Assembly (NCBI GenBank): GCA_008632985.1 | Contig: QPGO01000001.1 | Coordinates: 900,404-964,403 of the forward strand | Origin: Psammoneis japonica | Taxonomy: Eukaryota | Reading direction: 5' to 3' | DNA length: 64,000 nucleotides | Part shown: in pieces, positions 11,283 to 59,199 of the stretch | Layout: every line of letters starts with the position of its first letter | Position numbering within the stretch: position 1 is the first letter of the stretch | Program-made: the position numbers and the translations under genes | The notes under the pieces: model-generated | What the model was told of the DNA's origin: nothing | Database searches by the model: none | What the model saw: only the letters and a program-made list of their open reading frames with translations

Positions 11283-12126
11283 CCGAGCGAATCTCCTAGT
11301 AGGATGCCTGTCGCTGCCCCATCCCGAGCACCATCGGCAGAACCGACTCTGCTCCCATCCTCAGACTCTAGCGACAAACCGACTTTAATGCCGACGCTGT
11401 CTCCTACTGCTCGTCCGAGCAAGAGCCCATCAGACCCCCTTTCTCAAGCACCAACGACAGTGGCTATTAAGATAGACACGCGGACCAACGATGACGATGG
11501 TATCGACATTATTGTTGATGAGCCTGTTACATGGACTTACACCGTCACTAACGAGGGTACGGCGCCCCTCGTCAACGTGTTAGTCATTGATGACATGATC
11601 GGTCAAGTTACGAATCTTGTGGATGGTGATATTGACGGCGACAACGAGCTTGATGTCGATGAGACTTGGGTATATGAAGCCGTTGATACTTCCAGGGCCG
11701 GGAACTACAGCAACACAGGAAGAGTTTCCGCTACGTCCGGCGAGGAAGAAGTTGAAGACGAAGATTCCTCATCCTACTTTGGCGCGAATGTATCTGTCAT
11801 GATTGAAACGCTGACCAACGGTGAAGAAGCGGGAGTTGAAATTGAAGCGGGAAGTCTCGTTACCTGGACATACATTGTTACCAATGACGGTAACGTCCCC
11901 TTGAGTAACATTCGTATCGACGATGATGAACCCGGTGTTGTACCGGTATTGATCTCGGGAGACTTGAATGGCGATGACATTCTCGATGTCGGGGAGACAT
12001 GGATTTACGCTGCCAATGGTACTGCCAGGACTGGAGACTACTTTAACTCTGGCACAGTAGAAGGTTCCTTTGGTGACGAAGACGCCGTTGACAATGACCC
12101 AAGCTCCTACTTCGGGTACAATGTCT

Positions 12127-12450
12127 CAGTAAAGATTGAAACTTTGACCAATGGCGACGATGGAATAACCCTGGATGTCGGCGATGGTGTCATCTGGACG
12201 TACGCCGTTACCAATGAGGGGAATGTGCCTTTGAAGAACGTTCTTGTCACTGGTGACCAAATTGGAGTGATTGAAAACCTCGTCTCTCCCAGTAAAGATT
12301 GAAACTTTGACCAATGGCGACGATGGAATAACCCTGGATGTCGGCGATGGTGTCATCTGGACGTACGCCGTTACCAATGAGGGGAATGTGCCTTTGAAGA
12401 ACGTTCTTGTCACTGATGACCAAATTGGAGTGATTGAAAACCTCGTCTCT
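12127..12450 (+). repeat. Tandem duplication with 163-bp period that shifts the frame
   Basis: cagtaaagattgaaactttgacc... at 12127 and 12290; one substitution seen (actggtgac vs actgatgac). Confidence 0.95.
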
Positions 12451-15300: not shown

Positions 15301-15771
15301 TGCCGCCGCTTTTCTCGTTCGTCCTTCGGTCGACCCGGATTGGGAGGCTAGGCAGCAAGTGGGACAGGTGGTTAGGAGTGGAGAGTGCTTTACTAGAGTG
15401 CACATGACGCCTCTCCAAATCCCAAGCTGGATGGCAGGGCCAGAGGGCGGGAGAGGTGGGAGCGATTAAAACTGTCTGGTTGTTGCTTTGCTCTTCGGAA
15501 GAATGAGAGGTGCAACAGGGAAACAAATCGTCCCGAGGTCAGAGAGTCATTTTCAACGGTTTTTCTGTGGGGTGCCGATGACCAACGGTCATGGGCCCCT
15601 CTCGTCCATTGGACTTTTCAAGGACAGCGGCTGCCACTGCTTTTCTCGTTCGTCCTTCGGTCGACCCAGATTGGGAGGCTGGGCAGTGAGTGGGACAGGT
15701 GGTCAGGAGTGGAGAGTGCTTTGCCAGTGCACATGATGCCTCTCCAAATCCCAAGCTGGATGACAGGGCCA
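15301..15771. repeat. Pair of ~140-bp direct repeats (15301-15442 and 15632-15771)
   Basis: Shared ttttctcgttcgtccttcggtcgaccc...ctctccaaatcccaagctggatg; offset 331 bp. Confidence 0.95.
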
Positions 15772-15858
15772 CCAGCGCCTCCCATTGGCGACATGGAGTC
15801 GGAACGGGCCACGAGTCTTGGGTGGGTGGGTGAGCCCGGCTAGCGGGCTGGTGGTGAA

Positions 15859-16800
15859 TCACGGAGGTTCCGGATGAACGGGAACCTCCGCGCTTGGGTG
15901 GAGGACGAAGTCTCCACCCTCCAACATGCGTCTGGCGAAGTTGCGCATGATGGGTTCTGCCTGGAGATGAAGGCAACGAAGCATCTCGTCCAATCGCCAC
16001 TGGCTCAAGAGCCAGATGATGTCGGTGTCAACACGGGCGCAAAGCAATGCCATGGCGCCGGCAGCTCGGAGACAACGGGCCGAAACATCAGCGGGGTTGA
16101 AACCCAGGTTGGCGGGGCCAATGGCAACGACAGCGGTGCACAGCACGGAGGAGATGTCTGCCAGTGAAACACGATGCCATTGATGATTGGCAAAAGAAAC
16201 TCCCAGCGGGGTGTCTGGGAGCGCTCCATGAGCGCGAAGGTGCTTGACGCGCTCAATGAGAGCGAGGACAGGGCAAAGTTGGGGATGGCCAGAGCGGCCT
16301 AAACCAAGAACTTTGCCACGGATGCCATTCTTTTGATTGGTGAACGCAAGTGTCACAAAGGTGGCAGCATCAAGTTGGGCATCAGTGGCTGTCCAAATGT
16401 CAAGGCAAACACCGCCCGAGGAGAGCCGTGCGTCAGCGAGGCGGAAGGGGGTGGTGTCGGATGGGGTGGCGGTGCATTCGCCAGGCCGAAGGAGAAAAAA
16501 GCAAGCCAGTGCAATCATGCTGGCAATGGCTTTTGCTCTCATGTGGGGTGTGATTGCGACGGTGTGGAGTGTCCAAAAAAGGACTGCAATGGGGACCGGT
16601 TTGACCCGGTTGGGTGGAGGATCCTCTTTCTTGTGATGGCAGATTTGTCGGCCAAGGCGGAAGTCCAATTGGCCTTGGGATGTGAGTCGGGGGTCTTGGG
16701 TCCCCACTGCCACGAACATTTGCCCAACCTGATGCACGGCATCTTCAGCAGTGCGTGCGCGGATGGGATTTCCACGGGGGCAATGGCGCCAGTCCGGCAC
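15859..16800 (-). pseudogene. Tyrosine recombinase, catalytic Tyr replaced by Cys
   Basis: FFLLRPGEC, FTNQKNG, LCPVLAL, SARCLRAAGAMALL, QWRLDEMLRCLH (expected GRWxSDxxxRYL). Confidence 0.9.
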
Positions 16801-16968
16801 CGATGTGGGAAGACTTGAAGGTAGACGACGGGGTCGGAAACGTCTTCGAGGAGTGGGTCGAGGGCCAGTTGGGTGCAGAAATTGGACCAGAGACTCCAGT
16901 GGGTGTCAGCGGCGGAGGATCTTGAAGCAGTGACACCGTGGGCAACGGCATGCTGCACAGCGCTGACA

Positions 16969-18454
16969 TCACGAATGAACGCAGCGCGGGTGGTGGGGCC
17001 CACATTCGCCAGGAGGAGATCTGTGGACAAGCAGAGTCAAAATGGTGCAAGAAATCAGAGTTGGAGAGGCGTTGCATGCAAGAAGCGTCATCTGCTGCGC
17101 CGCTGAGGCAGCCGGGGAGATGGTCGTGGAGGCCAATGTGACGGTGATGGCGCTGGTGGTGGGCTTGGCCCAGGAGGAGATGGGAGGCTGGTTCAATGGT
17201 CGTGCTGGCTCCTTTGCGTTGCTGAAACATGGTGTCGAGGTCATGGTGCAGGAAAGGAAAGTTCGTTCCCTGATGTCGCAGCAACCCGCAATGGCACAGG
17301 ACTGAATGAAGCTGCCTGCGAGCTCAAGGTCGGTGTTGGTGATGGGACCTTTGGGATTCTCGCAGGTGGCAAGGCTGGCGGTTGCGTCCTTGGGAAAGGG
17401 CATGCGCCACACAATGGGGCCCAGGCGTGTGTGAGGGCGGACACGTCCGGTGCCAGTGCGGAGTTGAGTGGCCCGTGGTGCAGCTGTGGGAGTCGGCAGC
17501 AGGACGCCACCGGCACCATGGCCGGCTGCGTCGTGACAACCACCAACAGCAGGTTCCAACGGGACCAGCTCTTGAATGCGGGTGGGACGTGCATCCAGCA
17601 TTGTGCAGAGGTCTCGAAAATCATCGAGAATGGTGTGCATGTTCTCCGCAAGCCGGAGGCGTGCGTCAGGTGCAGCATGGCAGAGATTCGCCTGCAGAAC
17701 GGAGAAAAGTCTTCGGGCTCTGGGCAAGGCAACAGCGAGTGAACACAATTCGCCCAAGAGCTTCTGGCAATCAAGGACAGTGGTGTGGCGGCGGCTCCGG
17801 GGAAAGTCTTGGTGCAGTGTTTGGCGAAGGCGCTCTCGGCAGCGTGGTGTTAGCCGCAAGGTCATCGACTGAGTGTCGATCAACCAGCCGAGGACCTCCT
17901 TCTGTGTGGACCACGTTGCATCGCCCTTGCGGAGATTTTTGACGGATGTGGGCTCCTTGCGAGTGGGCAAGTCAAGGGAATCGGCAGGGCGAAAGATGTC
18001 GTCGATGGCATGCATGACAACTTGGTGTGCATTGCGGCGGGCAGTCTCATCGCCCTGTGCTGCACCGATGAAGTCGTCAACACAAACGTCGATGTATGTC
18101 GTGCATGTCTTCCTGCAAAAAATCGATGTGCTCGCAAGCGGACTTGTGTGGCCCCCTGGTGACACTTGCTTCTAGCTCTTCGGCTGTCCACAGTGAATCG
18201 GCAACTGTGATGGGCGCTCCCCGTGTTCGGCAGTGGCGCAAGAGCCTGTGGGCTGGATGCCCTGCGGCCTTGTGGAGCTGACCCCAGTCTCCTCTCTTCC
18301 TGCGACGGTGAAGGAGGTAACTGAGACCTTTTTGACGAAGCACAAAAGCATCCTTGAGAATTTGCTCACCCAATTTATCCAGCTCAGAGTTGGCAATGGT
18401 CTGCCCATGAAGAGTGGGACGACCATGGCTCTGCTGAGCATGCAGATTCTCCAC
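16969..18454 (-). pseudogene. RT/RNase H of the YR retrotransposon, internally deleted and frameshifted
   Basis: RGPHKSA..H..FL; YIDVCVDDFIG; KEVLGWLIDT; RNase H CHDAAGHGAGGV and ITNTDLELAG. Confidence 0.85.
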
Positions 18455-18544
18455 CTGCGGGGGTGGCGGGTCTGGAGCCGTCGCCAGTTCCAGATGAAAA
18501 GGCTCTCGGCAGTCGGTCCCCGAACCGATGCCGCTGCCGAATTC

Positions 18545-20340
18545 TCATTCGGTCCTCCAATGCTCCATGGCCCACTCCAGGAGCGCAGCCTGCTCTGCAT
18601 TGGTGTGGCATCCGTGATGGTCATTGTGGGAACCACAGCTGGTGTTGCATTGGTGCTTGATGTGGCAGGGGAGGCAACGGGCAGCGCCATTTGAGTCAAT
18701 GGGCAAGGCAATGTTGTTGCGAGTGCAGCGCTGCTTGACATCACGTCATTGCATGTTTGGGCAGTCACGAATGGCAGAAAAACGGTCATCACAGTTCTCG
18801 TTGCAGACAATGGAATTGTCGCCCGGAGTCTGAGCTTGCCCAGCAGGTGCGGGTGCAGGTGCTTGGGCCGATCCCGGATGCTGAAGCGGTCCCGTCGGGC
18901 CGCATGTTGGTGGGGCTTGGGGTCAGACGGCGATCGGCAGTGGACGCTGCCAATTCATGGTGCCCTTGGCCGCCTCGCAGACAATGTTCTTGGGCGTGAA
19001 TGGAGTGGGATTGTGCATGGATTCTTGATCCTCAAACCAATGATGGATTTCGATCTGGACATGGCGCTGGAAATCTGCAGGCAGCGCAGGGCAGTGCGTC
19101 ATCTGCAGTGCAAGATCATTGGCGCAAACGTCCACAGAGCGGCGAAGGTCCATGAGGCAATGGACGACCAGGTGGGCAGCGCCTGAGGCCGCAGACAGGA
19201 CCACCTGGAGTCCATCAAGTGGGTGTTGGACCGCCTGCATGGTGGTGGCAACCTTCGCATCGTCCGGTGCTTCAAGGACCATGGTGTTGGATGGGGAGGG
19301 CGTGCCCATTCCACCATGAATTTGGCGGCACATGGCCACACGGTGCGCAATCTGTTCCGCCTGTTGAGGAGTGGCAAGTCCAAAAATGAAAGGATTGACA
19401 CCTTGGGTGAGATCATCTTCATTGTGTCCGGCCAATGAGAGTTGAACAAGTTTGGTGACCATGCTGACTGAGATTGGGACCTCAAAGCACACGTTTTGTG
19501 CCTGGCGTTGCTCGTCCACAGCATTCTGCACTGCAGTGATCGGCCCAGTCTTGGGTGCAGCGGCCAAACGTTGCCACAAGGGCGGAAGCTGATTCTCTTG
19601 ATGCACCTGGCACAATCTCATGAGTTTTGTGACACCGTGTTCTCCGCAGAACTGCACCGGCGTCTTTCCGCAATTGGCAGCCTGTTGGTGGGCTTGGGCA
19701 TCCAAACGCTGTTGCCGCTGTTCCGTGGTGAGGTCGTTGACAGTGCGAATGATCAGCTGGAACTGCGGTCCCGGCACAGCCGGTGCCTTGAGTCCAGGAA
19801 GGTTGTGCTGCACGCGTTGGTCAAAGAAACGAATCAGATGCTCGTCAGGCAGTTGAGGGACAGTGGGCCACTCTGTGCAAACCGCCGACTCCTCGCCATT
19901 GGCTTGCGTCGCGACACATGCGATGCGCAAAAAATCCAGAAGTGCCCAGCAATCGGCCACTTTGTTGGCTGCGTCAAGCGCTCCACACATGCGAGTGCAT
20001 GCCTCCTCAGGGGTCAACGGCTCTGGCAGGAGCAGCTTGACCAAATCGAATGGTGCGAACATGGTTCCTCTCGTCCGACGTCCGAACCTCCTCTGAGTCC
20101 GCATTGTTTGCTGCTGCAGCCGGGTGCAACCCATTGGGCGTGGCGATGATGTGGGTTGCCAGAGCCACATCAGTGGGAACCCAAGTCCCTTGTGCGGCCA
20201 ACGCAAAATGCGCATCCGGGGGTGTCGCAACGGTGTGCTGTCCTTGGCGCAGGTTGCCGACGATCGTGAACTTCTGACCATCCCATGGCTGGGGTGGCCC
20301 TGCGACCGTGGTTGGATGCAGAGCAATGCGATGGCAGACA
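18545..20340 (-). pseudogene. Gag-like ORF1 of the YR retrotransposon
   Basis: Long ORF 18923-20473 (LMRLCQV...LPPLWQRLA). A downstream frame gives a C-terminal Cys/His motif CLPCHIKHQCNTSCGSHNDH ending at about 18545. Confidence 0.7.
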
Positions 20341-22686
20341 TGAGTTTGTCATCAATCATTCTCAAAGCACTCCTGCGACACACGGTTGTCTCTTCACTCT
20401 TGGATTGCCTTGACACCCACACAGCAAAGACATGGATTTGACAGAAGTGAGTGAGCAAAACATTTCCTCCCATGCTTCAATGGCTGATGTCACACGCTGT
20501 CCAAGCTGCAGCAATGGTGACTCTGACAACAGTGTGAATGAGCACCCAGCACTTGAAAAGAAGCAACCTGCCATGGTGGCAACCCCGCTGCCAAGCGCCA
20601 TGAAATCAACATGCTTCAGAGCATCTTCATTGCACAGTGCTGTCCAACAACTGTTGTTGAGGATGTTGTTGGGCAATTGGCCACAATCATTGATGGGAGC
20701 ATGCACTGATTGTCAATCACATGAGTGCCACCAGCTGCATGGCACTCTCCCCCCAGTCTTGCAGACTGGGGCCTGTTCAGCCTGTGGCAGTGCAGCATCA
20801 CAAGTCACAAGCACCTGACACTGTGGGTTGTGGTTGTCATCTCAGAGAAAGCAGAGACTGCTGTTGTCAGCAGCTCATTTGTCCTGTCATGATGTTTGGT
20901 GAAGAAGTTGAAAATCGTTCCAGGAATCTTGCAAAAGTTGGAAAATTGAAGAGGAGGACTGAAGGATGAGGAATGAAGAGGAGGTGAGTTGCTCGTTCAA
21001 CATGTTTGATCCTGTCAGTGACTTCACTTAAAGCCAATTGCAGGAATCAATCCAATTCAGCCAAAGATTCTCAGCAGAAGGAGCTGCAAAGAAGAAAAAA
21101 TGAAGAGAATGAGAAAGGACCCAGCTTTGCACCACCTTTGTGTTGAGCATTTGCAGCTTGCTGAAAAGTCATGTGCTCATGAGCAAGAATCAGAGAAGAT
21201 GGGTGACACTGCTGGCAGGAAGCAAAAAAGAATGAATGACGATGCAACTGGAAGGAAGCAGAGAAGAGCAGATGATGACGACCTTGCCAATGTGGGAAAG
21301 AAAGATTTGGCACATGAAGAACATCTGGGATCAAGCAAGAAAAGCAAGGCCCCAGAAAGTGAAGCACAGATCAATCAAAAGAGGCAAGCAGTTGCAATTG
21401 ATGCTGCTGCCCAACCAATCAAATTTGCACCAAACCCCATCGCCCAACCCACCAAAAGGCACCCCAATTTGCCAGCAATGGAAAAAGACCATCAGAACAA
21501 AGCAGGCCTGTTGGTCAGAGAAACTGTGTCAAAGGCCACAGGAGCCACAAACCAAACAACTGACCAGCAAGGGAGTGCAGCAGTCAAGCTGTCAGCAATG
21601 TCCAAGAAAACCAAAATCTTGGCAGCTCAGCCTGTGGATGCCAAGACTCAGAAAGACACAGAGCTGAAACCAAGAAACCTGAAGTCTCAGCATGCACCAG
21701 CAATTGCAAAGAAGCAGAAAAGCTTGGGAAGTGTTGAGGCAGTTCATTTGGGTGCAAGTGCAGAATTGGAAGCCAAGAACAACAGCAATGTGGGTGGTGC
21801 GGTTGCATCTGTCTTTTGCCACAAGTTTGTCCTTCTTGTTTTGGCATTGATGTTTGCCACTTTTTGCTGCTGCAGTTTGGGACCTCCAGTGCTGGGGCAA
21901 CAGGAAGTCAAATTGATTGACATGGTGCAAGAACAAGGGGAATCCATTCAAGACAATTGCAGCAAGATGTGTGACAATGCCAGTGGGAAGCACAAAAAGA
22001 GCAGGTGACAACCTGGCCAATGCGGAGAAGGAAGATTTGACATGTGGAGAACTTGTGGAATCAATGAAGGAAACCAAGGCCACAGAAGGCAAAGCACAGC
22101 TCACCCAAGATGGGCAAGCAGTTGTGACTGATGCCATTGCCCAACTGGAACATCTGCTGATTTGCTGGCACAGTTTAACCAAGAAGCATTTGTGCCAAAG
22201 CCTGTTGCCCAACCCGCCAAAACACATCCTGTGTTATAAAGTCACTTCAGCATCCAAAGTGAGGGTCAATCTTGACTCTGAACCCATCAACAGCATCTCT
22301 GAGTCAGAGTCATTTGCTCAGAAACCACCTGCCAAGGTGGCATCTGTCAACAGTGGCTCTGAATCTGAGTCTTTTTTACCACAAAGCCATCCTCCAAGTC
22401 AACTGCCAGTCTCAAATCTAGCTCTGCATCAGTGACCCATGGAAAAGGCCTTGAGTTGCAGGTCATCAAACCCCACCATCTCATGGCATGCGCACATCTG
22501 CAAACATTGGTTGACCCCCCCTCCAGATTGAAGTCAACATTCACTTGTTGGGAGTGCAACAATTTTGTTTGTTTTCACCATCATGATTGGCACATTTCAC
22601 ACTTGTTGCTCCCAGACACATTTCACTCAATGTGCACTTGTTGACTTGGATGCCAACATGCCAAGTGACATGGCAGCATTGCTCTC

Positions 22687-23050
22687 TCATCTCTGAACAG
22701 CTGCATTTCATTCCAACTGAAACATGTTTGTTTTCACATTGTGCAAGCATTTCTGCCAAAAGCGCTGCATTTCCGTCCATGATGTGGGCCAATCATTTGG
22801 CAAAATTTTCACCTTTTTCTGTTTCCCCCTCAAAACCCAACCTCACTGTCGACTCGCCACAATGTCATCTCTGAATGAATGAGTGCATTTTGTTCCAACT
22901 GAAACATGTTTGTTTTCACATTGGACATGGCATTTCTGCCAAAAGCGCTGCATTTCCATCTTCATGACCAGTGTCAATCATTCAGCAAAATTTTCACTTT
23001 TTCTGTTTCCCCCTAAAAACCCCATCCTCACCACTGACTCCTCACAATGT
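22687..23050. repeat. Diverged tandem repeat of about 180 bp, 2 copies
   Basis: ttccaactgaaacatgtttgttttcacatt...catttctgccaaaagcgctgcatttcc occurs at about 22711 and 22893. Confidence 0.9.
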
Positions 23051-25000
23051 TCCATTTGCAGCATTTGTCTGACTGATCATGTGCAGGGCATTTGTCCCTT
23101 CCACTTGTGATCTGCAGATTCAATTCCCCATGTTTTTTGTGCATCAGCACAGATCCACGAAAGTGGCACGACAAGGAGTCTGTCGGATTCCTGTGCAAGA
23201 CTGCACTGCGTGCATCATCACGAGCTGCCAAACAACTCTGCACCACCATGACAATGAAATGCAATGGCATTGATGCTCAATCCATCTTTTGTGAAGCACA
23301 CACAGTCACCACAACACAGCACCAACAATGAAAAAAAGAACAGGTGTCCTTTGACACAAGCGGCAAGTTTGTGATTTTGATTGTTGAGATGGCTCGTCAA
23401 TGAATTGGCAGCAAAACACGCCTTCAGCATGGGATGCACTGCATCTGATGACACATGTGCATTGTCATGGTCATCTCATGTGACTCATTGGTGATTTGCA
23501 CTCCACGGGACTCGGAAATTGACACCCGAATGTGCCGCATCATGGTCGTCACAGTCGATCGACGACTTGAGAGGTCAATGAAAGCACATTTTCCTGGTGC
23601 ATGAGCCACATGGAAATCACGCAGAAAAATGGTTCTTGTTCATTGGAGCCAACAGAGTGCAACTTTTCTCATGATGACACCCAGTTTTAACCATTTGCAT
23701 GATCAGAAAGCCCTTTTTCTCTGCTTTTCAGCAATGTGATTTTGCAAAAAGTTAAAAAAAATGACAAGAAGGCACTTTTTTCATCCTGCGGTTCACACAA
23801 TGTTCAGACATCAATGAGGCACATGGTTGAATTGGATGGAGAATCTTTTAAATTCAAACAAAGATGTGCAGCCAAACAAAAAAACACAGGGAAAGCACCC
23901 TTTTCAAGCAAGGAACAAACACAAAGAGGGGAAAAGAACAACCGTCGCATGCACATCATCTGCAAGACTCAGCCACATCCATCACCTCACTTCAGTGCAC
24001 CGCACTTCAGCACACACTGGAAAAATCACTTCAGCAGCAGCAGAGGATGATGGTCATTGTAGAGCAGCAGACAACAAGCTCCACCAAATGGATGGCGCAG
24101 CGACACATTCGACGACAAGGAAATGGATGGAGCAGGCATGCTCTGCAGAGATTGCTTGTGTTGACATCCAAAACAATGTGGGTGCATCCAGCAAGAAGAG
24201 AAAGGTTGTCAGGACACTCAAGCATTTCATGGCAGCAAAGCCAAAAAACATTGATGGAAACGTGGGACTGCAGAAGTGCAAGACACCAAGGAAAAGCAAA
24301 GGGTGGTCACCAAAGGCCAACAAGTTTTTTGTTGACATGGTCACAAAGATCAAGCAAGATGTTGCAAGCGAACACCTCGGCCAGTGGGAAGAGCTCTGCA
24401 GAGCCATCACAACTGAGCAAGATCAATGGGCAGCACAAGGAGCACAGGATGGCTTGGATGATGAAGGCAACCACCAGGTCAACTGTGCCAAAATCTACAA
24501 ACTGGAGTTGGCGGCAATTTGGTCGAGACCAACTTGGCAGCAATGACTTGCATTCACACTCATCGACAATCGCTTGCAGCAGAGACATGCAACAAATGGA
24601 TGGGACAATAGAGAACATTGTTTGAACATGCCAGTCAACTGATTGACTTCAACAGCAAAGATTGAAAATGAACCCAAACACTGCATTCAGTTGTCACCCA
24701 GTCGGCGATGACAAGCCAAGTGAAATCCCGTAAAGCAACTCATTTGGAGTTGCAAACTGATTGGGTTGCACCTCACTCATTGTGATCCACAACTGTTTGT
24801 TGATGTCCCCAGACATTCCTTGGTTTGCATGGACATTTTTCTTCATTTTCAATCACACCCATTTGTGGCAAAGGTGTGATTCATGTCAAATGGCAATGAT
24901 TTGTCATAAACAAATTTGTGTGCCAACACTCACAAATGCCATCTGCAACATTGTCCATTGGTTTGACCACAAGACAATTCATGGAAATGGGCCTCTGATG

Positions 25001-25084
25001 CAAACCACCTGCCAAGGTGGCATCCGCCATCAAACCTGGCTCCAAACCACCTGCCAAGGCAGCATCTGCCATCAAATCCAGCTG
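25001..25084. repeat. 42-bp tandem repeat, 2 copies; related sequence at 22322
   Basis: caaaccacctgccaagg at 25001 and 25043. Confidence 0.9.
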
Positions 25085-27475
25085 CTGTGAAGGAAAAAAA
25101 TAGCCATTGAAATTCAAAAGGTTGTTGGCATCATCATGGAGAAGGAAATGAAGCTTTTCATTGAAAAAAAAAAGATTGTTCACAAGGGGTTAAAACTGAG
25201 AAATTTTGCAACAACGGAGGGTGAGTGATGTTTGTCAAAGAAATTGTCAGAACGGGTGATGTGGTCAGCATCTTTGTTGCAGTTTAAGATGATTTAGAGC
25301 ATGAGCACCTCAGAACTTTTGAAACTCATGCAGCTGCTTGCCACACTTGGTTGGTCAAAGGATTCTGCTGTCAACTCCCGCTCACTCAGCCACAGCTGGA
25401 TGATTCCCCACACTCATCCACAAGCATTCCAGCCACACATTGATGTCACATCAGTGCAACCAATCATTGCAACATGCCAAGATGGAAGATGAACAGCATT
25501 GCTGACATTGCTGGTCCAAACACAAGGCTCAGTGAAGCAACAAACAAAGCAAAAACAAGATTTTCAAAGAACACATGGCAGAAATTGCAAGAAAGGACAG
25601 CAGAAACAAGCACAAGAAATCAAGAGGCCATCATTTTGGTTTTGAGCAAAAGTGGGGTGTAAAGAAGTTCAAGCTCAGAATGGCAGATGGGGAATGTTGC
25701 TGCCGTTGTCCATTTGAAGGATGCGGCCATTTGTTTCCATCAAAAGACATTGCTTCTGAAGAAATGAAGGCCAACGGAAATCCAAAAATTGGCTGTCATC
25801 ACAACAGAAATGGAGTGGCAATTTTTGCTAAGTGTGGTCAACCAGTGCCTTGCTGCAACAGCTGTTGGTGCACTCATGTGCCTTCCAAAACTCTGTCTTT
25901 GCACATTGGCAATGTGCTCATTCACAATGCTGCTAAAATGTTTTCAAGAATGAAGTTGAAGTGAGGTTGGGTTGTTGTGAAAGTGTTGCACAAATGGGCA
26001 GATTCTCTCCAGTGGACTCTGCCAATGATGTCCCTTGTCAATTAAAATGCCAGCCCAAGGGTGCTTCTAAAGAGAAGCAGCAGAAGAAGAGGGTCACAAA
26101 TCTGCAGCAGAGAAAGACTTTCATGTGCAGGGTTTCTGCTCAAGTTGGTTTGTGGCACTCAAGAAGCCAAGGATGACATGTGTCAACACAACATTTCTGC
26201 TTGAGTTGAGATGTTTTTGGAGTCCATCATTGCAAAAACCATCATTGGATTTGCAACCACACCCCCAAATCTGAGCTGACCACACAGCAAACAGCTTTTG
26301 AAGCTGTGACTGTGGAGCTTCCTTTGCTGGCCTTGCCTTCCCTCTTTCTTTTGCAGATGCCAGCAGCTGCATCTTGAACCTTCTGCATCACTCTCAAGTG
26401 CAGGGGTGCACCGGAAGCTCTTTCAGCAATGAACCAACTTCTTTTTTTTGTGAATTTCCACCACAACAATCAAGGGCACCTCCTTGATGCCATGCTTCAT
26501 CTCATGCAAGAAAAAGCTGCTTGAAGGGGCTGCCCTTTCTCTGACAGCAACTGAAGCTCATGCTGCCCCTGTGTTGGAGAGGGAGCAGCATGGTGTGTCT
26601 TGTGGTGCAACATTGTGTGGCAGCCCACCTTGTCAAACAACGTTGCACGGCAGAACATTGTGCCGCCTTGCATGGGACAATGCTCATAAAATGGCTGCAG
26701 CATCATCTTGGGCAATCAAACACAATGGTGGTGGCTGTTTCTCTTTGTGCACACAGAGGGCTGGCAGCATGCATCTGCCAAAGCTGCAGCTGCATCATGC
26801 TCTCCAAGCTGGCCATGCTGAAATGCTGAGCCAAAGCCCACAACCACAACCCACAAATGCAGTTCACACTCAAAATGGCAACAACATTTTGTTCCAGGGT
26901 TTACATGCTCTGGACACATGGCCAATGTCCAAGCCACAAAGCCAGCACATGATGAGACATTGGGCAAGACCAGGGCCACCACACCATGTCAGACAGATGG
27001 TTTGTCATGATGCCTCTGGAATTCCCTCATGAATCCACATGTGCAAAAAACTTTTCTGCAGAGAATTCCATGCAAAACATGCCATGAGACACCATGCTAA
27101 CAAATTGTCTGCATGCAACCCTTGCACATTGTCCATTGTCCATCTTGCTGCTTCCATGAGAGTCTGTGAGGGCAACCTTGGGTGTGCACAGCACACACGA
27201 CAACGGTCAATGCATGGACTCACTGTGGAGAGTGGCTGCCAGCTGTGCTGTGGTGGGAGTTGGAAGCTCAGCCTTGTGTGTGTTGCAACCACACATCAAG
27301 TCTTACGAGTCATGCTGATGACACTTTTTTTGTCATGGAGGTTGGCAACTGCCATGGTCCAATTGGGCAAAGAGGTTGACTTTTCTAAAAAGACACTGTG
27401 TCGCCTGCCTTGGTGCACATGATTTCTGCGGTGTGCACACAAGGTGCTGATCTGATGTTTGATGGACATCATCTT

Positions 27476-27500
27476 GAGAGAGAGAGAGAGAGAGAGAGAG
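27476..27500. repeat. (GA)n microsatellite
   Basis: About 12 GA units. Confidence 0.95.
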
Positions 27501-30500
27501 CCACAGGATGTCATGAGCTTTCAAGTTCAGTTCAAAATCAGTGCCAGGTTTTGCAAGCTTTTTGGTCCATTGCTTTGTCGACCTTGGTGCTGCCAGGTTT
27601 GTTGTGGATTTTGGATGACCACTGTGGCTTTCATTTGGACATTGTTTGTTCTGCATTTCCCTCGTGGACCACACCATGTGCTCATCAAACTCCCACAGAA
27701 GATTGACAGCCGTGCATTTTAAAACAAGCATTGTGTTTGTTGCATTGGAGACTGTTGCTTGAGTCAAAATGTCAAAGTCATTTGTCAACATCATTTGCAA
27801 CATGTTCCATTCATTGTTTGCATTGTCAAGATTTAAAACACATCTCATCTCATTGTCAGTTGAACTTTTCCATGGAAAACATCAACAACAACTTGTGCTG
27901 TTGTGCTGCAACCTTGAGCTGTTGCTCTTGACAACACAAGCTGTTTTGTTGCATCTTGACTGGTTGCATCTCTCAACATTGTTGCACAGTGTTCATGTGT
28001 TCACTCTTCTGTCAACTGGGTCATCAAAGCTTCCACCCACTGCCAGTGTGTCAATTTGTTTGTTTCATCAAAATGGCTGCATTGTCTCCTGCTCTGCACA
28101 ACACCTCCAGTTGATGTGTGTGACAGTGCTGCACCCACACTGGCTGCCACACTTTGTTCACAAGCCAGCACAAGTTTGTGCACCAAGAAGTCAACCTGTG
28201 ATCTCTGGTTTGCTCTGATTTGAAATGCCCATGTCAGAGTGTTTCAAAGCAAAACTGGGTTGAACTCCTTTGTCTCTCCAAGTCTCCTGTTCATCAAGAA
28301 CTGTCTCTCAAGTGACATGGTTGCTCTCAATTGTGCCATTGAACTGTGTTCATTTGAAATGGATCCACAAGTTGTTGTCTCAAGAACATCTCTGCTGATC
28401 CATTGTTGAGCTTGCTGTGTGCATTTGGCACTGCCTGCAGCCACATCAAGTCATCCTCTCAACTCTTTGCCATGACTGACCACAGCCCTCCTCTGCCTGT
28501 GGCTCTGCAGGCAAGTCAAAAACTGCCTCTGCCTCTTTCTTTAGCTCAACAGAATCTGGCATCAGCAACCAAAGTTCCACAACCTTGGCCACAGCTGGCT
28601 GATGGTGGAATTCATCCTGAGTGTGATTGCCACATGGGTGGGTCCCCACTGGATGACAACTGCAAGCCACAGCTCAAGCAAACCTTGGATGCTCTCACAA
28701 TGACACCAATGTCATCAAGCTTGGCAGAAACTTGGAACTTCCCAGAGGCAAGGCAGACAAGGAGCATTTTGTTCAGGCAATCAAGGTGGCAGTTCATGAA
28801 CACAGCATGGAAAGCTTTTGTCATGAAGCTTGACAAAGGTCATGAATCTGCACAGCTTGTTGATCATTTAGAAAGTCATTGCTGAGTGCAAGCATCAGTC
28901 TTGCATCAATGCAAATGATGTGGTGCATCAGCCATGATGAACACAAGCATGACAACATCAATTTCACATGCCTTGTCATTAAGTCTTGCATCTCCCAACA
29001 ACTCAACAAGAAAATTGAAGCACAGCTTGGCCACCAGGACCTGTTGGAGCACTTTCCTGGCTAAATCATTTTCATGATGGTGCTCAAGACTTGCAGCACA
29101 TCTGCAGCTCATGATGTTGCTCCAGCTTCCAAAGATTTTGAAGCTTTGGTGCTTGATTCCCACCTGGATGAAATGCAACCAAATTTTCTGCCAAAGTGCA
29201 GCTGCATTTCAGCAAGATTCTCCAGACCAGGTGTGCTCTTCTGGCCCAGCTTGGCTCTGCTCTCCTTGGCAGAAGTGAGGCTGGCCACACATGTAAAAAG
29301 GTGCCTTGGTGTGCTCTTGCACTCCCAAAACTTTTGTTGAGAAAAGGTGTGCAGAATGCAATTGTGTTACAAATGCTTTTTGTCATGTGCGCAAACACAT
29401 TTTATGACAAATTGTTGTGACCATTGAGATTTTCTACTGGCCTCCATTCATTGTGAAAAAGGAATTGACAAACAACACATGCATGGCTGAGAAGCACATG
29501 ACAAGATCTTTCCATCAATGTCCACACCTCAGAATCAACCATTCAAGCTGGCAGCACCTTTTCTCATGTGGCCAGTCTCAAGTGTTCCAGGTCTTCTGGT
29601 GAAATTTTTGATCAAGCAATTTTCACAAAGTGAGATCCAGCACAGGACAAGGGTTGCGTCACCCCCAGTCCAACCACACATGCCATGTTTCCTCCCAATG
29701 AAGCATTTCAACCCATGACAATCCACCACATTCAAGGAACAGCTGTGGAGGCTTTGAGCAATGCATTGATCCCTTCTTGAGAGTTGAGGGCAAGAGCCAT
29801 GCAAGAAATGCTGCAGTTGACTGCAGTGAAATGGATGCCACTGTCAGCACAACAAAAAAGTGTTCTCAAAGCATTCAGCTCCCCAGCTCAAGCTGTGGCT
29901 CTTGTTTGCAGTTCTTTTTGGCACTCACCACCTGCACACAAGTCATCTTTGTCATTCAAAACTGTTCCCTTGAACATGAGCTTGATGTGTTGATGTGTCA
30001 AACCATTGCTGTTGATGGACACAATGCAAGGCACTCTTTCACTGCTGTGGATGTCACCCCTGCAGCCAGTGGCTTCTCAACAACAATGCACAAAAGGCGA
30101 TGGTGCTGCAGCAGGCAGAGCTTCTTGCTTCATTGTTGGTGCCATGGCCTGGCCTCTCACAGCATTGCAATCAAAAAGAGGGACATGGAGAAAAATTGTG
30201 CCATGGCCATGCACCTTGTTTTGGAAGAATTTCTTTGTAGAAATGTTGCTGTGGCTGCATGGCATTTGTCCATCACTGTGCCAGGAGAGCCATCATCTGT
30301 CTGCCTTTCTGCCCACTCAGAAGTGCTGATGCAGTGCCAGAAACCAAGCACCTCTCCAAAAGTTTTAGTTTCTTGCCCATGTTCAATCAAAATGCAGACT
30401 GTGCTGCTTGCAAGTGCCCTTGCCATGCTGTGTCTAAACGAGAGCTCATTTGTTCCTGGTCATTCAAACCAGAGCTGCTTGTCACACTTGAGAAACATCA

Positions 30501-32726
30501 AAGATTTTGGGGGTCCAACTTTCAACTAACTTGCATCAAAGCTTGGTCTCAATCAAGTTCATTGCTTGCATGGAGCACAACAACAGAAGCCCATCAAAGC
30601 CATTTCCTTGGCACTGTCTGCAGGCAACTTCCCCACACTTCCTTGTGTCATCAAGAATCAGCAAGAAATCAGTGTCATCAAGTTGCATCTGACCAAGCAT
30701 CTCTTCCAAATGATGTCCAGCAGAAATCTCATGATTCAATGCAAAATCACAACAACAGTCAGCCCTTGCAAGGTGGTCCTCCTTCCAAACCAAACAACCA
30801 GAGGAGTCAATGGAAAGTGGCAAAATGGACCACAGCTCAATCTCCAAGCCACAACATTTCCTTGCTTTCTCTCTCGATGCAGCTCATGGTTGCAGAGGCC
30901 ACAAAGTAAACTGCTTTCAACCATGACCAAGTTCTGATGCATGACTGATGACACAAAATAAAATGGTGTGCACTGCACAAAGAAATTTTGTTGCATTGAC
31001 AAATCATGACAAAAGGAAGGCTGGGCTTTCATGCATTTTGTTTGTTCAATTTGTCTGTGTCTCTCCTCTGGCCTGCCCCCCATGCAACCAACCAGAGACA
31101 GATGGTGAAGATGAAGTCAAGGTGCGGGTTTGGGGCTGGTCACTTTCAAAATGACTAAATTTGCAAGTGGTCTTTTTGTGCATGAAATTGCACTCAATGA
31201 TTTTCAAAGGCTTTGGGGTTGTCATCCAACTTGCTTCATTGACACAAAAGACATCAAATTTTTAGAGTTGCCTCAAGTCAATTTTTTGGTTGAAAAATGA
31301 TTGCCTCCTGGTCAACCAATCTCATTTTTTTTACTTCTTGGTCATTGTTCACAAACAATTGAGTGCCAGCCTCTTTTTGTCTTGTGGTGGTTTGAGTGCC
31401 AGTGTCTCTTTTTGTCTTGTGTGGTGGTTCACCCTCATTGGCGGACATGCAAGACTTGTTGACACCAGTGTGCATGCCACCATCAAAAAATTATGGTCAC
31501 AGATCAAAGTCAAGACAGATCAAGCAACACTGCTCAACCCTTGTTTTGATGCCTGCTCTGACACCTGCAAACCACAACCCCAGATTTCCACTCTTTCATG
31601 TTGTTGAAACAAGTGTTGTGCACAGCGTTGTCACCAATTGTGCTGTCTCACACAGTCGTTTGCAGCATTGTGCACCTGAAATGACTGAGAAACATGTTCA
31701 GTGAAGCCTCTTTCTTGTTGTGTCTCTGGACAGAGCCACATGAACCCAGTTGTCTCTGCAGTCCAAGTTGTTGACAACCAGGCTTTCAACTGGTGTCTCC
31801 TCCCCCTCTTGGGAGCTTGTGGACAGTTGTGCAGCATTGTTGCACAAAACTGGGAGCTGGGTCATTTGCATCCTCTGGCAGATTTTTGGAGTTCTCTTGG
31901 CAATAAAATCCATTGCAAGGAAAGGAAAATTGACAATGCATGCCTCTCTCTCCTTGGATCCGCACAAAACAGATCTCCCTGCCCTGCCTTCTTCTGCTCA
32001 TGCCTCAAGACAACAGAGTCAACTTGTGAAACACAGGCTGACCTCACCCAGCAACCATCAACCCTTGTCAAATCTAAATCTTCCAAGGAAACACCTTCAT
32101 TTGGCTCAACTCCTTCAAAAAAGCCAAAACAACTGGCCTGCCAGGACTTGTCTGACGACCACAATGAATGGACACAAAGCACCACCAAATCATGTCTTTG
32201 ACTTCATCAGTTTGTCAAAAACATTGGATGACAAAGAACAAAGATGACAAGTGCAAGACAGAACATGCTGCTGCTGCTGATGAGTTGTGCAACATTGTGT
32301 GTTCTTTGCACATGCCATCGTTTGTGGGCTGCAAGCAAAGGCAGCAGCCACCTCTTGTGGGCCAGTGCAAGCACCATCATCAATCAAGAGTTGATTGGAG
32401 AGGCACACAATGAAGATGACACTGATGTGAGATGTTTGACAATGCTTGTGGATGTCACCAAGTCCTGGTTTGCCAGTGACGAACATCCACACGAAACCCA
32501 AGAACATTGTGGGGAGATCACTCTCCTCCTCAAAAAGAACGACACAACCACACAATGATGCTCATGCTTGAAAATTCAAATTTTCACATCGTGGCTCTGT
32601 GTTTGTGCAGACAATGAGACACAGCCATCCAGTGAAGCGTTCAATTTTCTTAGTCACAGTGCATTTGTGGGACTTCTCATACGGTAGACTACGGCCCCAT
32701 CCCCCCCCAAGACTTGTTGGGGCGTG

Positions 32727-32738
32727 TTTCGCGCGAAA
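32727..32738. promoter_or_regulatory. Palindromic E2F-like site TTTCGCGCGAAA
   Basis: Matches the TTTSSCGC consensus on both strands, about 170 bp upstream of ATG 32905. Function is inferred only. Confidence 0.35.
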
Positions 32739-32904
32739 ATCATTTCGCCGCGCGAATGTTGGCCCAATTGGGCAAAGAAGACCACACAGCACACATGCCT
32801 GCACACGCAAAACGCAGCGCGACCGAGGCGCGACAGACAGACAGAACAATGACACAAAAAACAACACACCAACACACACACGCAACACAAGACACACATC
32901 GACC

Positions 32905-34059
32905 ATGGGCAAGAAAAGTAGACGCCACAGGGCCAGAAGCAAGGTGAAATGTACTCGCAAAAGCGTTTCACTCGAAGAAGTCGATGATGAGACTTTGAGG
33001 CGCATGACGGAGCTCCTTGTCGTCCTGGTATCAACGACCGAGATAAAGAAAGCGCTGGCAGCTGTGAAAGGCATTTATTCTGCCACTCATGTTGGCAACG
33101 AAGGCACTCCCACCTCAGAGATCTGCGCGGGTGATACTGAAGGCGATCGCGCATCACGGGCTCTTGTCAAGGTCGGCGGTGTTGAGGCGATTATCTCCTT
33201 CATGCGTGAAAATCAACGCACCGTATTGGTAGCCTTGTTTGGTTCGTGTTGCGCCATCCTCACCCGTGTTTCTGTTTCGGCTCGTGAGGAGTGCAGCCGA
33301 GCCATTGTCCAATGCGGCGGGATTCCGATTGTGCTCGGCGCTTTTCGCATCTTTATTGAGAAGTTCAGGTGGGAGGAAGGGGGCGTGTATACTTGTAAAT
33401 CGGCAATCTCAACAAATCACGCGCTCGACATTTTGAAGAGAGTGGCTGATCAGCACGTGACTGAAATCCTGCAGGCCGGTGGGATCAAAGCTGTTCTTTC
33501 GGTTCTCAAGAACATGTGGCCCGTAGAAAACGCTGCAATAGTATGGAGACAAGCGATGAGCGTGTTACATCACATTGTATTGCCGAGTTACACAAGTGGA
33601 AATGCTCAGCTCCTTTCCATAGTGTCGCAAATTGTGGCCTTTGGCGGCATCCCCACCATTGTGGCACGCATGAAGGCCTTCTCCGATTCTAGAGCATTGC
33701 TTGGTAGTGGATGCTTCTTCGTTCAATTGCTATGTGATGCTACAGTAGGTGGGGACCCGTCCGCAGTTCTTGCTGCCGGTGGGGATGAGGTCATTCGTAT
33801 GGCCCTCGAGTACAACGAACGAGCGGCGGCCCCAGATCCTTCTCTCCGGCAATGCCTTCTAACTGCCAATGGGCTCATGAACAATGTTGTTCCTCAGTGT
33901 CGCAACTGCGGTAGGCAATCTGAAGACATGATGGTGTGTAACCGTTGTGATACTGCTTGGTACTGCAGCAACGAATGCCTTGCGGGGGATTGGCAGAATC
34001 ACAACGCTGCGTGTAACACGGCGAGGTGGAAGCCCCTCAACAATGTCCAGCAGGAATAG
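32905..34059 (+). CDS. ARM-repeat-like protein with C-terminal MYND zinc finger
   Basis: CRNC...CNRCDTAWYCSNECLAGDWQNHNAAC; helical GG(I/V)xxI repeats; normal TA content. Confidence 0.9.
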   Translation: MGKKSRRHRARSKVKCTRKSVSLEEVDDETLRRMTELLVVLVSTTEIKKALAAVKGIYSATHVGNEGTPTSEICAGDTEGDRASRALVKVGGVEAIISFMRENQRTVLVALFGSCCAILTRVSVSAREECSRAIVQCGGIPIVLGAFRIFIEKFRWEEGGVYTCKSAISTNHALDILKRVADQHVTEILQAGGIKAVLSVLKNMWPVENAAIVWRQAMSVLHHIVLPSYTSGNAQLLSIVSQIVAFGGIPTIVARMKAFSDSRALLGSGCFFVQLLCDATVGGDPSAVLAAGGDEVIRMALEYNERAAAPDPSLRQCLLTANGLMNNVVPQCRNCGRQSEDMMVCNRCDTAWYCSNECLAGDWQNHNAACNTARWKPLNNVQQE

Positions 34060-34599
34060 TTTTTGCCATCATATGTCTGAGAAAATGTTGTGTCTGTGAA
34101 GATTTGTCTTCCCATGTGGAATGGCGCGGTGGTGAAGGAAGAATCGATGTGTTGAGACGTCCAGTCACGAATTGTAGAATCGTTTCACTTGCTTGGAGCT
34201 CGTGACTCGTCAGAATAGCCGAGGCGATGTCAATGAGAGAATGTACTTGGCTTTATTTCTATCGGTGAGCTCGGTGTCATGTCGATTTCATGCTTCGAGC
34301 TACGGTAGCGTAGGTGTCGTAGGTATCTAGAAAGAAACGCACCATAGCTATGTTCTTTTCTTTTGTCATACAAGCCAGACTCGATTCTTTAATTGCACTT
34401 AGTTTTTTGGAAATACTCTGTATACGAGCACACTGCATAATGCAATGACAACGCAAGCGTTCCCGAAGAGGTCATGCGATACAATCCTACTTAAAGAAAA
34501 CTAGAATACTAAGAGCCACACCATCCTACCTCTCCAAAGAACAACAAAATACCATTAGTCATTTTTTAATGGATTGTTCATCTATTCATCATCAACGGA

Positions 34600-35820
34600 C
34601 AACGCTGAAAATGCCGTGATGAGTCGAAAGTCGAAAATCACAAACAATGGGTCTCTCACCTTTCTGGGTCTGACAGCAGCCCAGGAAACCAAACCAATGC
34701 ATCACGGCAAGCAGGTGCTGAGCTTCATTTTTGCATTTTTGAGCACAAAACAGCGTGGCTGGGAAGAGCTGCTCTCTTTGTGACACTTGCAGTGACTGTG
34801 GTCCCACAGTCATCAAAATTGCTGTGGCACCACAGTCAACAAAATGGCTGAGTGGCTGTTTTGTTGTTGACAACTCTGTGTTCTCCTCTGCTCCCTGACT
34901 GCACCAAGCAATGTCTGCACTGCTTGGAACTCTGGATCTAAAGACAGAGAAGCCCCCACTGTGAGGTTTGCCAAAATGACAACAGCAAGCAAAAATTCCA
35001 TCCATGGCTCCAGATGGAGCTTCAGCAGGCTGCAGCTTGGTGCCATGGATGGAGGAGAGGCGTGCCGCAGACCTGCGCTCCTGTTCCATCATCTTTGGTG
35101 TGTGCATATTTTGGATCACACAGCACAGCACAGGTTCCAGGTTCTTCTGTGCATCATCCAGGCAATTGGTGAAATCTCTTGCACAGCTGAAATCCTTGCC
35201 CAACTCTGGTGCAATGATCTTCCCAAAAGATGGCGTGGCCGCCACTGGAGAGAGCCATTGTTCACAAAGTGTCAGAAAATCCGTGCAAAACACAGCTGAA
35301 AAAGTTCAGGTTCTTGCTGTGCAGAGGAAACATGGCAAACAAGCTCAGATTTATTGGGAAAGCTTGCATCCAGAAACTCCTCAAACATGGTGCAGTTGCC
35401 ACTGTTGCCACCGGGAGCAGTGCCAGGGATCTCAGTTTGATGCGCACAAACATGTCTTCGCAAATGGCGGTGCAACTCACCACATCATTGCATTCTTGAC
35501 CATGAAAGAAAATGCCATTCAGCACAAAATGAAAGCTGCTGCATTCTGGCTCATGCTGATCAAACTGCACAACTGCTTCTGGATCAGCGGGGCTTCTTCA
35601 ACCAAAGAACATGTCCCCGCCGGCTGGGCAGCTCAATTTAAATCCCATGTGGCAATGTTTTCAAGGTTTTTTGCATCAAACTTGGCCACCCAACCTTTGG
35701 CAAAGGATGCCAACAACAGCTTTGTCATGATCGAAAGAAGTTGCAACAAACGAGCTCAACACAAGAAATGCCTTTCCCGCTGTCAGGGCACATTGTGTCC
35801 TTCCAAAGATCTTCTGTTGG
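34600..35820. other. Isolated TpA-depleted island between two intact genes (relic insertion or dead gene)
   Basis: About 4 TA in 1.2 kb by eye, 3 of them in TAAA/TTTA; TA-rich sequence on both sides. Confidence 0.7.
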
Positions 35821-36177
35821 TCTGTTGGCAGTTAGCAGGCTGTGATTGGCAGGCAGCGGCTGCCATGCGGGTTCGTTGGTTTGGAGCTAGGGCCCTCCAC
35901 TGGTGGCTAGAGAGTTGCCGCCACCCGGAGGAGTTGCGGCAGGTGGGGACAAACAAGCAAAAAAGAGTTGGTTATTTCGAAAATTTGAGGGGCTGTAGAC
36001 AGATTATTCGAGTTTGTCTTGGCATTGGGTCATCAAGAGCAACACGTAAGAGAGAACAGGCCCGAGGCGCGAAACCCAACAACAGAGCGAGGCTAACGGA
36101 GAGCCAACAAAGGCATACTGTTACCCTGTTACTTGTGTTTGGACGCCGAGCTGTTCTTTGTGTTATTGAGAAGAAGC

Positions 36178-59180: not shown

Positions 59181-59199
59181 CCAGAACAAATCATGATGT

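Follow-up and report, generated by a model that had tools for sequence, protein, structure and literature searches.

Sharply bounded TA-depleted blocks in nuclear DNA of the diatom Psammoneis japonica suggest a context-dependent A:T-to-G:C mutator of repeat-derived sequence

Why does about half of one stretch of diatom DNA hold almost no TA dinucleotides, and why do the few that remain tend to lie beside runs of A? The stretch, referred to below as the window, comprises 64,000 nucleotides of nuclear DNA of Psammoneis japonica (assembly GCA_008632985.1, contig QPGO01000001.1, positions 900,404 to 964,403 of the forward strand); positions are counted from its first letter. A first-pass annotation, made from the letters alone, had noticed that the TA sites surviving between 20340 and 32600 sit almost only in TAA or its complement TTA, mostly in TAAA or TTTA, and had proposed a mutator that reads flanking bases or DNA shape and avoids TA next to A-tracts. 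Here, TA loss was found to be restricted to blocks, and the survival of the remaining TA was found to depend on sequence context. The explanation that we favor, and hold to be probable but by no means assured, is that a recurrent mutator, specific for TpA and directed at repeats, changed A:T to G:C in place, to near saturation, in blocks derived from repeats or transposons.

TA density in the window was bimodal, and a two-state hidden Markov model assigned 32,244 of the 64,000 bases to seven low-TA segments. Six of these had TA observed/expected (obs/exp) ratios of 0.03 to 0.12, compared with 0.56 to 0.80 outside the segments; the seventh (3917 to 6579; obs/exp, 0.20) was excluded from every pooled count. 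The edges of the blocks were abrupt, sharp to ∼10 to 20 bases. The largest block spans 17.5 kb (15395 to 32918) and holds 64 TA in 17,524 bases (obs/exp, 0.058). TA is dense through 15394 and then occurs only at 15467 and 15841, and the right edge falls at 32918/32919. The interval from 20340 to 32600 is the older part of this block, with obs/exp ratios of 0.04 to 0.07 for TA, 0.12 to 0.20 for CG, and 1.76 to 1.92 for CA/TG. It has no recognizable coding domain, and its open reading frames (ORFs) of at least 90 amino acids gave no credible Pfam match.

Pooled, the depleted blocks contained 104 TA in 29,581 bases versus 1343 in 31,756 bases of normal DNA (obs/exp, 0.06 versus 0.63). CA and TG were enriched (1.73 versus 1.16). 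CG was reduced (0.39 versus 0.97), and this CpG depletion, present in most blocks (0.12 to 0.89 per block), had been overlooked in the first-pass annotation. AA/TT stood at 1.22 versus 1.12, so the earlier remark that AA runs stay abundant holds; AT was barely altered, TC was at 0.99 versus 1.10, and each of the four bases made up 0.25 of depleted DNA. General GC-biased conversion or AT-to-GC drift, which the annotation had also set aside, was ruled out: AA/TT and AT are undepleted, and the GC content of the blocks (0.45 to 0.58) brackets that of normal DNA. Removal of TA by a mutational process is supported. One consequence concerns stop codons. Per kilobase and strand, depleted and normal DNA contained 1.6 versus 8.7 TAA, 0.95 versus 9.6 TAG, and 23.7 versus 17.9 TGA. 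Because TAA and TAG are nearly absent and TGA is the sole common stop, long ORFs crowd all six frames; the low-TA segments hold 156 ORFs of at least 90 amino acids spread over all six. Gene finders would over-call genes in such DNA (15395 to 32918 and 57952 to 64000), a source of annotation error.

An exact recount of residual TA from 20340 to 32600 gave 51 sites, 44 in TAA/TTA and 36 in TAAA/TTTA, in close agreement with the hand tally of about 50, 45, and 37. The same bias had been claimed for three other intervals. It was recovered from 8700 to 10750 (7 of 7 TA in TAA/TTA) and from 34600 to 35800 (3 of 4); from 58000 to 64000, the 12 TAA/TTA sites were found as reported, among 18 TA rather than about 16. 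The description "almost only TAA/TTA" suits the interval in which it was coined (86%) and overstates the case for the other depleted blocks (60%), which when pooled had 32 of 53 sites in TAA/TTA and 20 of 53 in TAAA/TTTA. The bias was strongest in the oldest block (71% for TAAA/TTTA) and lower in younger blocks, a gradient in keeping, on small numbers, with repeated rounds of purging that spare nothing but refractory sites. The flanks of residual TA departed from local expectation, the comparison on which the annotation had staked its claim, under each of three nulls. The expected fractions for TAA/TTA and TAAA/TTTA were 0.50 and 0.16 when taken from the bases flanking the 2825 CA/TG between 20340 and 32600, 0.47 and 0.14 from base composition, and 0.37 and 0.12 from TA in normal regions of the window (n = 1350). 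For the main block, binomial P values under all three were ≤6e-8 for TAA/TTA and ≤7e-18 for TAAA/TTTA.

Survival of each context was expressed, approximately, as its count in depleted blocks divided by its count in normal DNA, per base and with both strands counted. By 3′ base, survival was 0.040 for TAC, 0.037 for TAT, 0.099 for TAG, and 0.188 for TAA. It rose as the A-run following TA lengthened (0.056, 0.10, 0.32, 0.42, and 0.71 for zero to four A) and with the number of sides bearing an A-pair, as in TAAA or TTTA (0.043, 0.35, and 0.76 for zero, one, and two sides). Depleted DNA had 45, 49, and 4 sites with A-pairs on zero, one, and two sides, and normal DNA had 1185, 159, and 6 (P = 4.5e-21 by Fisher's test; odds ratio, 8.5). 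The tetramers that survived best were TTAA, CTAA/TTAG, and CTAG, and the worst were ATAT, ATAC/GTAT, and GTAC. Only positions +1 and +2 differed clearly from normal TA sites, with a marginal effect at +3. A-runs as such were not enriched in the blocks (ratios of 0.74 to 1.36 after GA or AA). The footprint thus covers about six bases, within which A-pairs protect and a 3′ pyrimidine sensitizes. The proposed A-tract rule was correct in that A-runs protect and was incomplete in that the rule is wider: YTAR (Y, pyrimidine; R, purine) is spared and RTAY is erased, and it had been missed that erasure is most thorough at sites with a 3′ pyrimidine.

For the proposal that a mutator reads the flanks, a short-range context rule is what the data support; reading by an enzyme or via DNA shape is not established, and preferential re-creation of TA beside A-runs is the possible alternative. 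On that alternative, all TA were erased alike, and those now present were newly made by ordinary mutation, mostly next to A-runs. Two sites are consistent with it: a surviving TAAAAA at 23014 faces TCAAAA in an internal paralog, a transversion, and at 31156 the window reads TAAA where 25 contigs from a public DNA run (X1, described below) read CAAA. However, A-pair flanks occur at only 16% of the CA/TG in the main block, which are the main transition sources of TA, and at 71% of its TA. Newly made TA in other contexts would therefore have to disappear more quickly, and that already amounts to a context rule. The monotonic rise of survival with A-run length, where A-runs are not enriched, also argues against gain alone, and we consider this account unlikely.

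TA was lost from TA-normal ancestors by mutation to TG or CA, as paralogs that still carry TA demonstrate. A 142-bp direct repeat has a TA-bearing copy at 15301 to 15442 (plus strand), straddling the left edge of the largest block, and a depleted partner at 15632 to 15771 that is 91% identical. Opposite three TA of the first copy, the second has TG, CA, and TG. The copies differ further by one TG/CA double and four changes from CG to TG/CA; all else in the 140 aligned bases amounts to one transition and one transversion. At the 53108 edge lies an imperfect inverted repeat (arms at ∼52700 to 52960 and 52960 to 53200) in which, over 35 aligned bases, the outer arm has four TA, three of which face CA, CA, and CG in the depleted arm. 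Internal repeats within depleted DNA differ by adjacent TG/CA doubles (three, four, and one), as expected if ancestral TA or CG were resolved independently in each copy.

A second line of evidence came from a dead retroelement at the left end of the largest block. Its pol frame (15859 to 18810, minus strand; reverse transcriptase family) has four stops in 984 codons and encodes 1 Tyr, 41 Cys, and 34 His. The ORF upstream of it in the same element (18923 to 20473, minus strand), which is gag-like by position only and matched no Pfam family, encodes 0 Tyr, 19 Cys, and 22 His in 517 codons; four host genes, for comparison, have 6 to 30 Tyr. Tyr is kept in none of six conserved-Tyr columns, where the window pol has C, W, W, C, S, and H. 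Against homolog P0123 (54% identical), all four Tyr of the homolog align to C, C, H, and H. Across 39 homologs, a homolog Tyr faces Cys, the commonest counterpart, in 34 of 119 pair-sites and His in 7, and the 17 retained Tyr all fall at a single window site; these pair counts, which draw repeatedly on the same positions of the window, are not independent. Among Tyr-poor homologs, one comes from a named diatom, which shows nothing about depletion elsewhere. The remaining excess Cys and His of the window pol mostly face Arg in homologs, a mark of CpG decay. The window pol has C-V-D-D at what we take, placing it without a column-by-column alignment, to be the Y-x-D-D box expected of reverse transcriptases.

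If these elements, or a virus or other donor, had always avoided TA by selection, for example against a nuclease that cuts at TA or UA, the sequence would never have been TA-normal here. Such an intrinsic or foreign composition would suit the one uniform TA floor over all blocks, and no TA-normal copy of the 20- to 33-kb material was found. The relatives of the retroelement speak otherwise. At E ≤ 0.001, 2077 homologs were found for the ORF at 16969 to 18165 (minus strand), with a weak RVT_1 match in the relatives P0140 and P0159, and 79 related loci from metagenomes (442,042 bases) had TA obs/exp ratios of 0.45 to 0.85, with none below 0.45 and a single 1.4-kb segment called low. These loci came from a pattern scan and the 80 best matches, by which mutated copies could have been missed, and close relatives of the depleted pol were not confirmed in the genome contigs or viral contigs searched. 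To judge from these sequences, TA depletion is not intrinsic to the retroelement family. With none of the 79 relatives depleted, conserved Tyr residues lost, TA-bearing paralogs present in the window, and unrelated blocks carrying the same signature, we consider an intrinsic composition very unlikely.

Both strands were hit, since Tyr codons became both Cys and His codons. When the order of CA and TG was tested for strand runs, as a sign of processivity, no tracts emerged in depleted blocks outside a leucine-rich repeat (LRR) array (z, −1.1 to +1.9); the value of 3.3 in the array itself is explained by its periodic sequence. This array is the TA-poor part of a host LRR gene (48631 to 50281, plus strand; 6 TA; obs/exp, 0.06 for TA and 0.72 for CG) and comprises about ten 72-bp units (10 copies by periodicity). 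At one conserved Leu position, eight units have TTG (Leu) and two have TCA (Ser), the two products expected of an ancestral TTA. The array has 0 Tyr in 504 codons versus 3 in 186 normal codons downstream. An in-frame TGA at 49477 to 49479, where sister units read CGA, breaks the LRR frame, which is otherwise continuous from 48769 to 50838; the gene is perhaps a pseudogene, or else a copy that is methylated and decaying. The array is a possible nonmobile target of the same process.

These observations bear on a further alternative, in which elements were hypermutated once as extrachromosomal cDNA or episomes, in the manner of APOBEC editing, and then inserted. Edges sharp to ∼10 to 20 bases and the identity of at least one block as a retroelement accord with it, and APOBEC-edited long terminal repeat (LTR) retrotransposons are known to integrate, according to the available text of PMC4866542. 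But both strands were changed without strand runs, two block edges fall inside repeated segments (the 142-bp repeat and the 53108 inverted repeat) rather than at element ends, and a host LRR array bears the same marks. Moreover, old blocks (CG, 0.12 to 0.20) are as TA-free as young ones (0.73 to 0.89), although one early event should have left restored TA in the former. Editing before integration is, in our estimation, rather improbable.

Was the depleted sequence real? In X1, 96% of sampled words from 28001 to 38000 were present. X1 contigs of 1.0 to 7.2 kb matched depleted sequence with 0 to 3 other letters, at a word depth of ∼60, about that of flanking genes, and bridged the edges at 32918, 34584, and 35832. 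A single 7218-nucleotide contig covers 34133 to 38000 with three other letters and one gap, and bridges both edges of the block between 34584 and 35832. This match excludes an error confined to the window. In all, 842 X1 contigs, most of them 85 to 95% alike, aligned to 18001 to 38000; 569 were less than 95% alike, indicating related copies elsewhere, and many contigs 85 to 99% alike aligned to parts of 20340 to 32600, again pointing to copies elsewhere in the genome. The differences were mostly transitions (117 to 136 places per type versus 9 to 25 per transversion type). The pattern could still be mimicked if silent DNA carried a modified base at TpA that is misread, or if assembly or polishing altered the sequence, given that X1 has no recorded library type and may be the source sample. 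The close match of X1 contigs over 1 to 7 kb, at the depth of flanking genes, counts against such an artifact, as do the CpG decay of the blocks, their in-frame stops, and the indels that separate internal repeats, all of which show long evolutionary histories within the blocks; we judge it extremely unlikely. As a separate observation, at 25478 the window has CAAG where the single covering X1 contig has TAAG, a C/T difference in a TAA context that is possibly allelic.

The favored process, a repeat-directed TpA mutator working in place, is probably recurrent or continuing on chromosomal DNA, with a single recent sweep as a possible alternative. The TA floor is 0.03 to 0.12 regardless of a CG obs/exp ratio that ranges from 0.12 to 0.89. 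Because old and young blocks share this floor, and because CA and TG are abundant and their transitions would restore TA, repeated action seems likely. Targeting would be by repetition or heterochromatin.

Several points weigh against this reading. Several bins of the main block lack extra X1 cover, and much of 20.3 to 32.6 kb is without additional X1 contigs at ≥85%, so repetition as the trigger is unproven there. Near-identical repeats in TA-normal DNA (12124 to 12450, 99%; 1 to 253 and 1444 to 1696, 100%) are undepleted. X1 is possibly the source sample of the assembly, in which case it lends no independent support. Sharp edges would equally fit elements that arrived already mutated, and the LRR array might have inherited its lack of TA from a single TA-free founder unit. 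Residual TA are few (98 to 104 in all depleted blocks), and normal DNA of the window, most of it genic, stood in for the ancestral TA contexts. With a normal-like starting composition assumed, the loss of TA and CG (722 per 10,000 tetramers) balances the gain of CA and TG (740) in totals only; per flank, loss and gain were uncorrelated (r = −0.12). It is for this lack of correlation and the approximated ancestral contexts that the survival ratios are approximate.

A working mechanism can be outlined. The data themselves show which way the change ran, that it is limited to blocks, that it struck both strands, and that survival depends on context; targeting, recurrence, and chemistry go beyond them. 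Each TA was changed by a transition on either strand to TG or CA, and occasionally to CG when both strands were hit. The process would act in place on chromosomal DNA, within sharp edges and most likely repeatedly, and the TA left over would be poorly susceptible sites, with loss cut ∼8-fold per side where at least two A follow TA (or two T precede it) and nearly complete where a pyrimidine follows. The chemistry that we favor is deamination of adenine with a strict requirement for a 5′ T, in duplex or transiently opened DNA. Such a deaminase would have to bend or open the TpA step, and stiff A-tracts with a narrow groove would be expected to resist. As a second choice, thymine might be oxidized at TpA and then mispair with G. 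More tentatively, and with distinctly less confidence than in the process itself, we propose a genome defense enzyme of diatoms, or at least of this lineage, that converts adenine at 5′-TA-3′ in chromosomal duplex DNA to a base read as guanine; its targets would be DNA that is repeated or silenced, and it would be reapplied over generations.

Known mutators were compared with this pattern. Repeat-induced point mutation (RIP) has been described, in the accessible parts of PMC2621366 and PMC7882544, as specific to fungi and as changing C:G to T:A, mostly CpA to TpA, in repeated DNA. On that description, the likeness lies in near-saturating transitions on both strands, confined to blocks of apparent repeat or transposon DNA, with a dinucleotide preference, inactivated elements, and untouched adjoining host genes. 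The direction is opposite, for RIP makes TA and destroys CA/TG, whereas the diatom blocks lose TA and gain CA/TG. RIP also creates stop codons, whereas the diatom process removes TAA and TAG and leaves long open frames. RIP is confined to duplicated sequence; in the window, 842 mostly diverged X1 contigs fall on 18 to 38 kb, several bins of the block lack extra cover, and two near-identical repeats in TA-normal DNA escape depletion. RIP further depends on a RID/DNMT-like protein and acts before meiosis. RIP itself was rejected as the cause, with TA at 0.06 and CA/TG at 1.73 versus 0.63 and 1.16 outside and with TA of paralogs changed to TG/CA rather than C:G to T:A.

Context-dependent hypermutation of LTR retrotransposons by APOBEC enzymes, fossilized in the genome, is reported in PMC4866542, and it resembles the present case as an enzyme-like, context-dependent hypermutation that kills retroelements. 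APOBEC enzymes act on C on one cDNA strand; here, A:T pairs are changed on both strands, and also in a nonmobile LRR array. APOBEC-type cDNA editing was discarded: instead of strand-specific G-to-A change, A:T changes were found, with Tyr becoming both Cys (A to G) and His (T to C) and no strand tracts.

The first-pass annotation had suggested comparison with TadA-derived adenine base editors (ABE), ADAR, and DNA polymerase eta; none was a clean match. ADAR changes A to G and tolerates a 5′ U or A, so that AA is edited too. ADAR-type hyperediting was rejected, with AA/TT at 1.22 in the blocks versus 1.12 outside. DNA polymerase eta converts WA to WG (W, A or T), mutating both TA and AA, and its signature was likewise rejected, with TA lost and AA not. 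The natural site of TadA is U-A-C in a tRNA loop, and TadA/ABE changes A to G at 5′-T/Y-A-C-3′. TadA and ADAR act on RNA, and TadA is known to act on DNA only after laboratory evolution. Both share A-to-G change with the present process, and the U-A-C site of TadA resembles the TAY sites most erased here. In the blocks, the requirement for a 5′ T is strict; TAC (0.040) and TAT (0.037) are erased to the same degree, ahead of TAG (0.099) and TAA (0.188), and CA is enriched rather than depleted.

Two further systems offer partial parallels. The DddA-type toxin is a duplex-DNA deaminase for which a 5′ T is obligatory and which grips sharply bent DNA by its minor groove, according to the available portion of PMC10442228, and on that account it may supply a physical reason why stiff A-tracts would shield neighboring TA. 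It is a bacterial toxin acting on cytosine in TC, whereas TC is undepleted here (0.99 versus 1.10). The thymine of TA and TC is preferentially replaced by 5-hydroxymethyluracil (5hmU), and in dinoflagellates 5hmU and 5-methylcytosine lie on overlapping repeat elements (PMC11572971, available text). TET/JBP-type 5hmU thus resembles the present case as a TA-preferring thymine modification on repeats of another marine alga; it differs as an epigenetic mark for which that text states no mutational outcome, and TC, at the same ratios, is untouched here.

The remaining low-TA segments carry the signature in varied settings. The block at 8806 to 10818 has 4 TA (obs/exp, 0.034; CG, 0.17) and gave no Pfam match. 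That at 34584 to 35832 lies between a MYND/ARM gene and an aldehyde dehydrogenase gene and also has 4 TA (obs/exp, 0.049; CG, 0.31); TA occurs once per 5 to 30 bases through 34583 and next only at 34939. The block at 52014 to 53108, whose right edge falls within the inverted-repeat arm, has 8 TA (obs/exp, 0.12; CG, 0.89). The block from 57952 continues past the window end at 64000 and has 18 TA (obs/exp, 0.049; CG, 0.19 to 0.39); TA is dense through 57951 and next occurs at 58096, and the edge at 53109 is equally abrupt. Directly right of that edge, 53109 to 54000 is the window's richest kilobase in TA and AT (GC, 0.39; TA obs/exp, 0.95). The blocks did not match one another by BLASTN at E ≤ 1e-10, though the signature is common to all, and no convincing terminal repeats or target-site duplications were seen at three block edges. 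A Pfam scan of 108 of the 156 ORFs of at least 90 amino acids gave a single sub-threshold, chance-like match (Joubert; E = 0.005); the other 48 are frames overlapping both retroelements and the LRR array.

The excluded segment, 3917 to 6579 (minus strand), is the weakly TA-poor middle of a second retroelement, and its CG ratio is 0.68. It may be a mild case of the same TA-loss process. The second retroelement itself extends from 1981 to 8215 (minus strand), with RVT_1 detected at E = 9e-7 in 3686 to 5209 (minus strand), and its plus strand has an extreme purine skew (GC skew, +0.34 to +0.49; AT skew, +0.29 to +0.40). At the window start, 1 to 253 and 1444 to 1696 form a perfect 253-bp inverted repeat (100%) in TA-normal DNA. 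Two adjoining ORFs at 11073 to 14229 encode DUF7507/DUF11 repeat proteins, domains that are commoner in prokaryotes, and contain tandem duplications of 163 bp (99%; 12127 to 12450) and 69 bp (100%; 11141 to 11282), neither of them TA depleted.

The best relatives of a GH99-like ORF (42571 to 44184) were from diatoms (Attheya, Cylindrotheca, and Bacillariaceae) at 44 to 67% identity, none identical. Other ORFs of the window are ordinary eukaryotic genes, encoding an aldehyde dehydrogenase (two exon blocks), an HPP membrane protein, MYND/ARM proteins, a poly(A)-polymerase-like protein, and an LRR protein. A contig from a further run, X2, skips 36905 to 36992 and 37202 to 37287 inside the aldehyde dehydrogenase gene, like spliced introns. 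X2 is labeled "DNA?" and behaves like transcript data; it leaves nearly all depleted DNA uncovered. No RNA run was listed as containing 28001 to 38000, and no conclusion was drawn from either observation.

Taken together, these features mark a strong candidate for a genome mutator not yet described, RIP-like yet different in its chemistry. Our literature search found no description of TpA-depleted repeat blocks or of A:T-to-G:C hypermutation of repeats, in diatoms or other eukaryotes, although subscription journals or supplements may hold one, and it found no natural adenine deaminase of genomic DNA. If a defense enzyme of the proposed kind exists, it would be a natural A:T-to-G:C editor of DNA and the chemical mirror image of fungal RIP, with an activity on genomic DNA for which we found no natural precedent and which would be of interest to base editing. 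How the enzyme bends or opens the TpA step could then be read from its footprint of six bases (RTAY erased, TTTAAA spared), and the context rule offers an assay readout for candidate enzymes: RTAY fast, TAAA slow, and TTTAAA nearly immune. In the available text of PMC2621366 and PMC7882544, repeat-directed hypermutation is so far described as fungal and as cytosine chemistry; if the present reading holds, such a genome defense would have arisen independently in a major group of marine algae.

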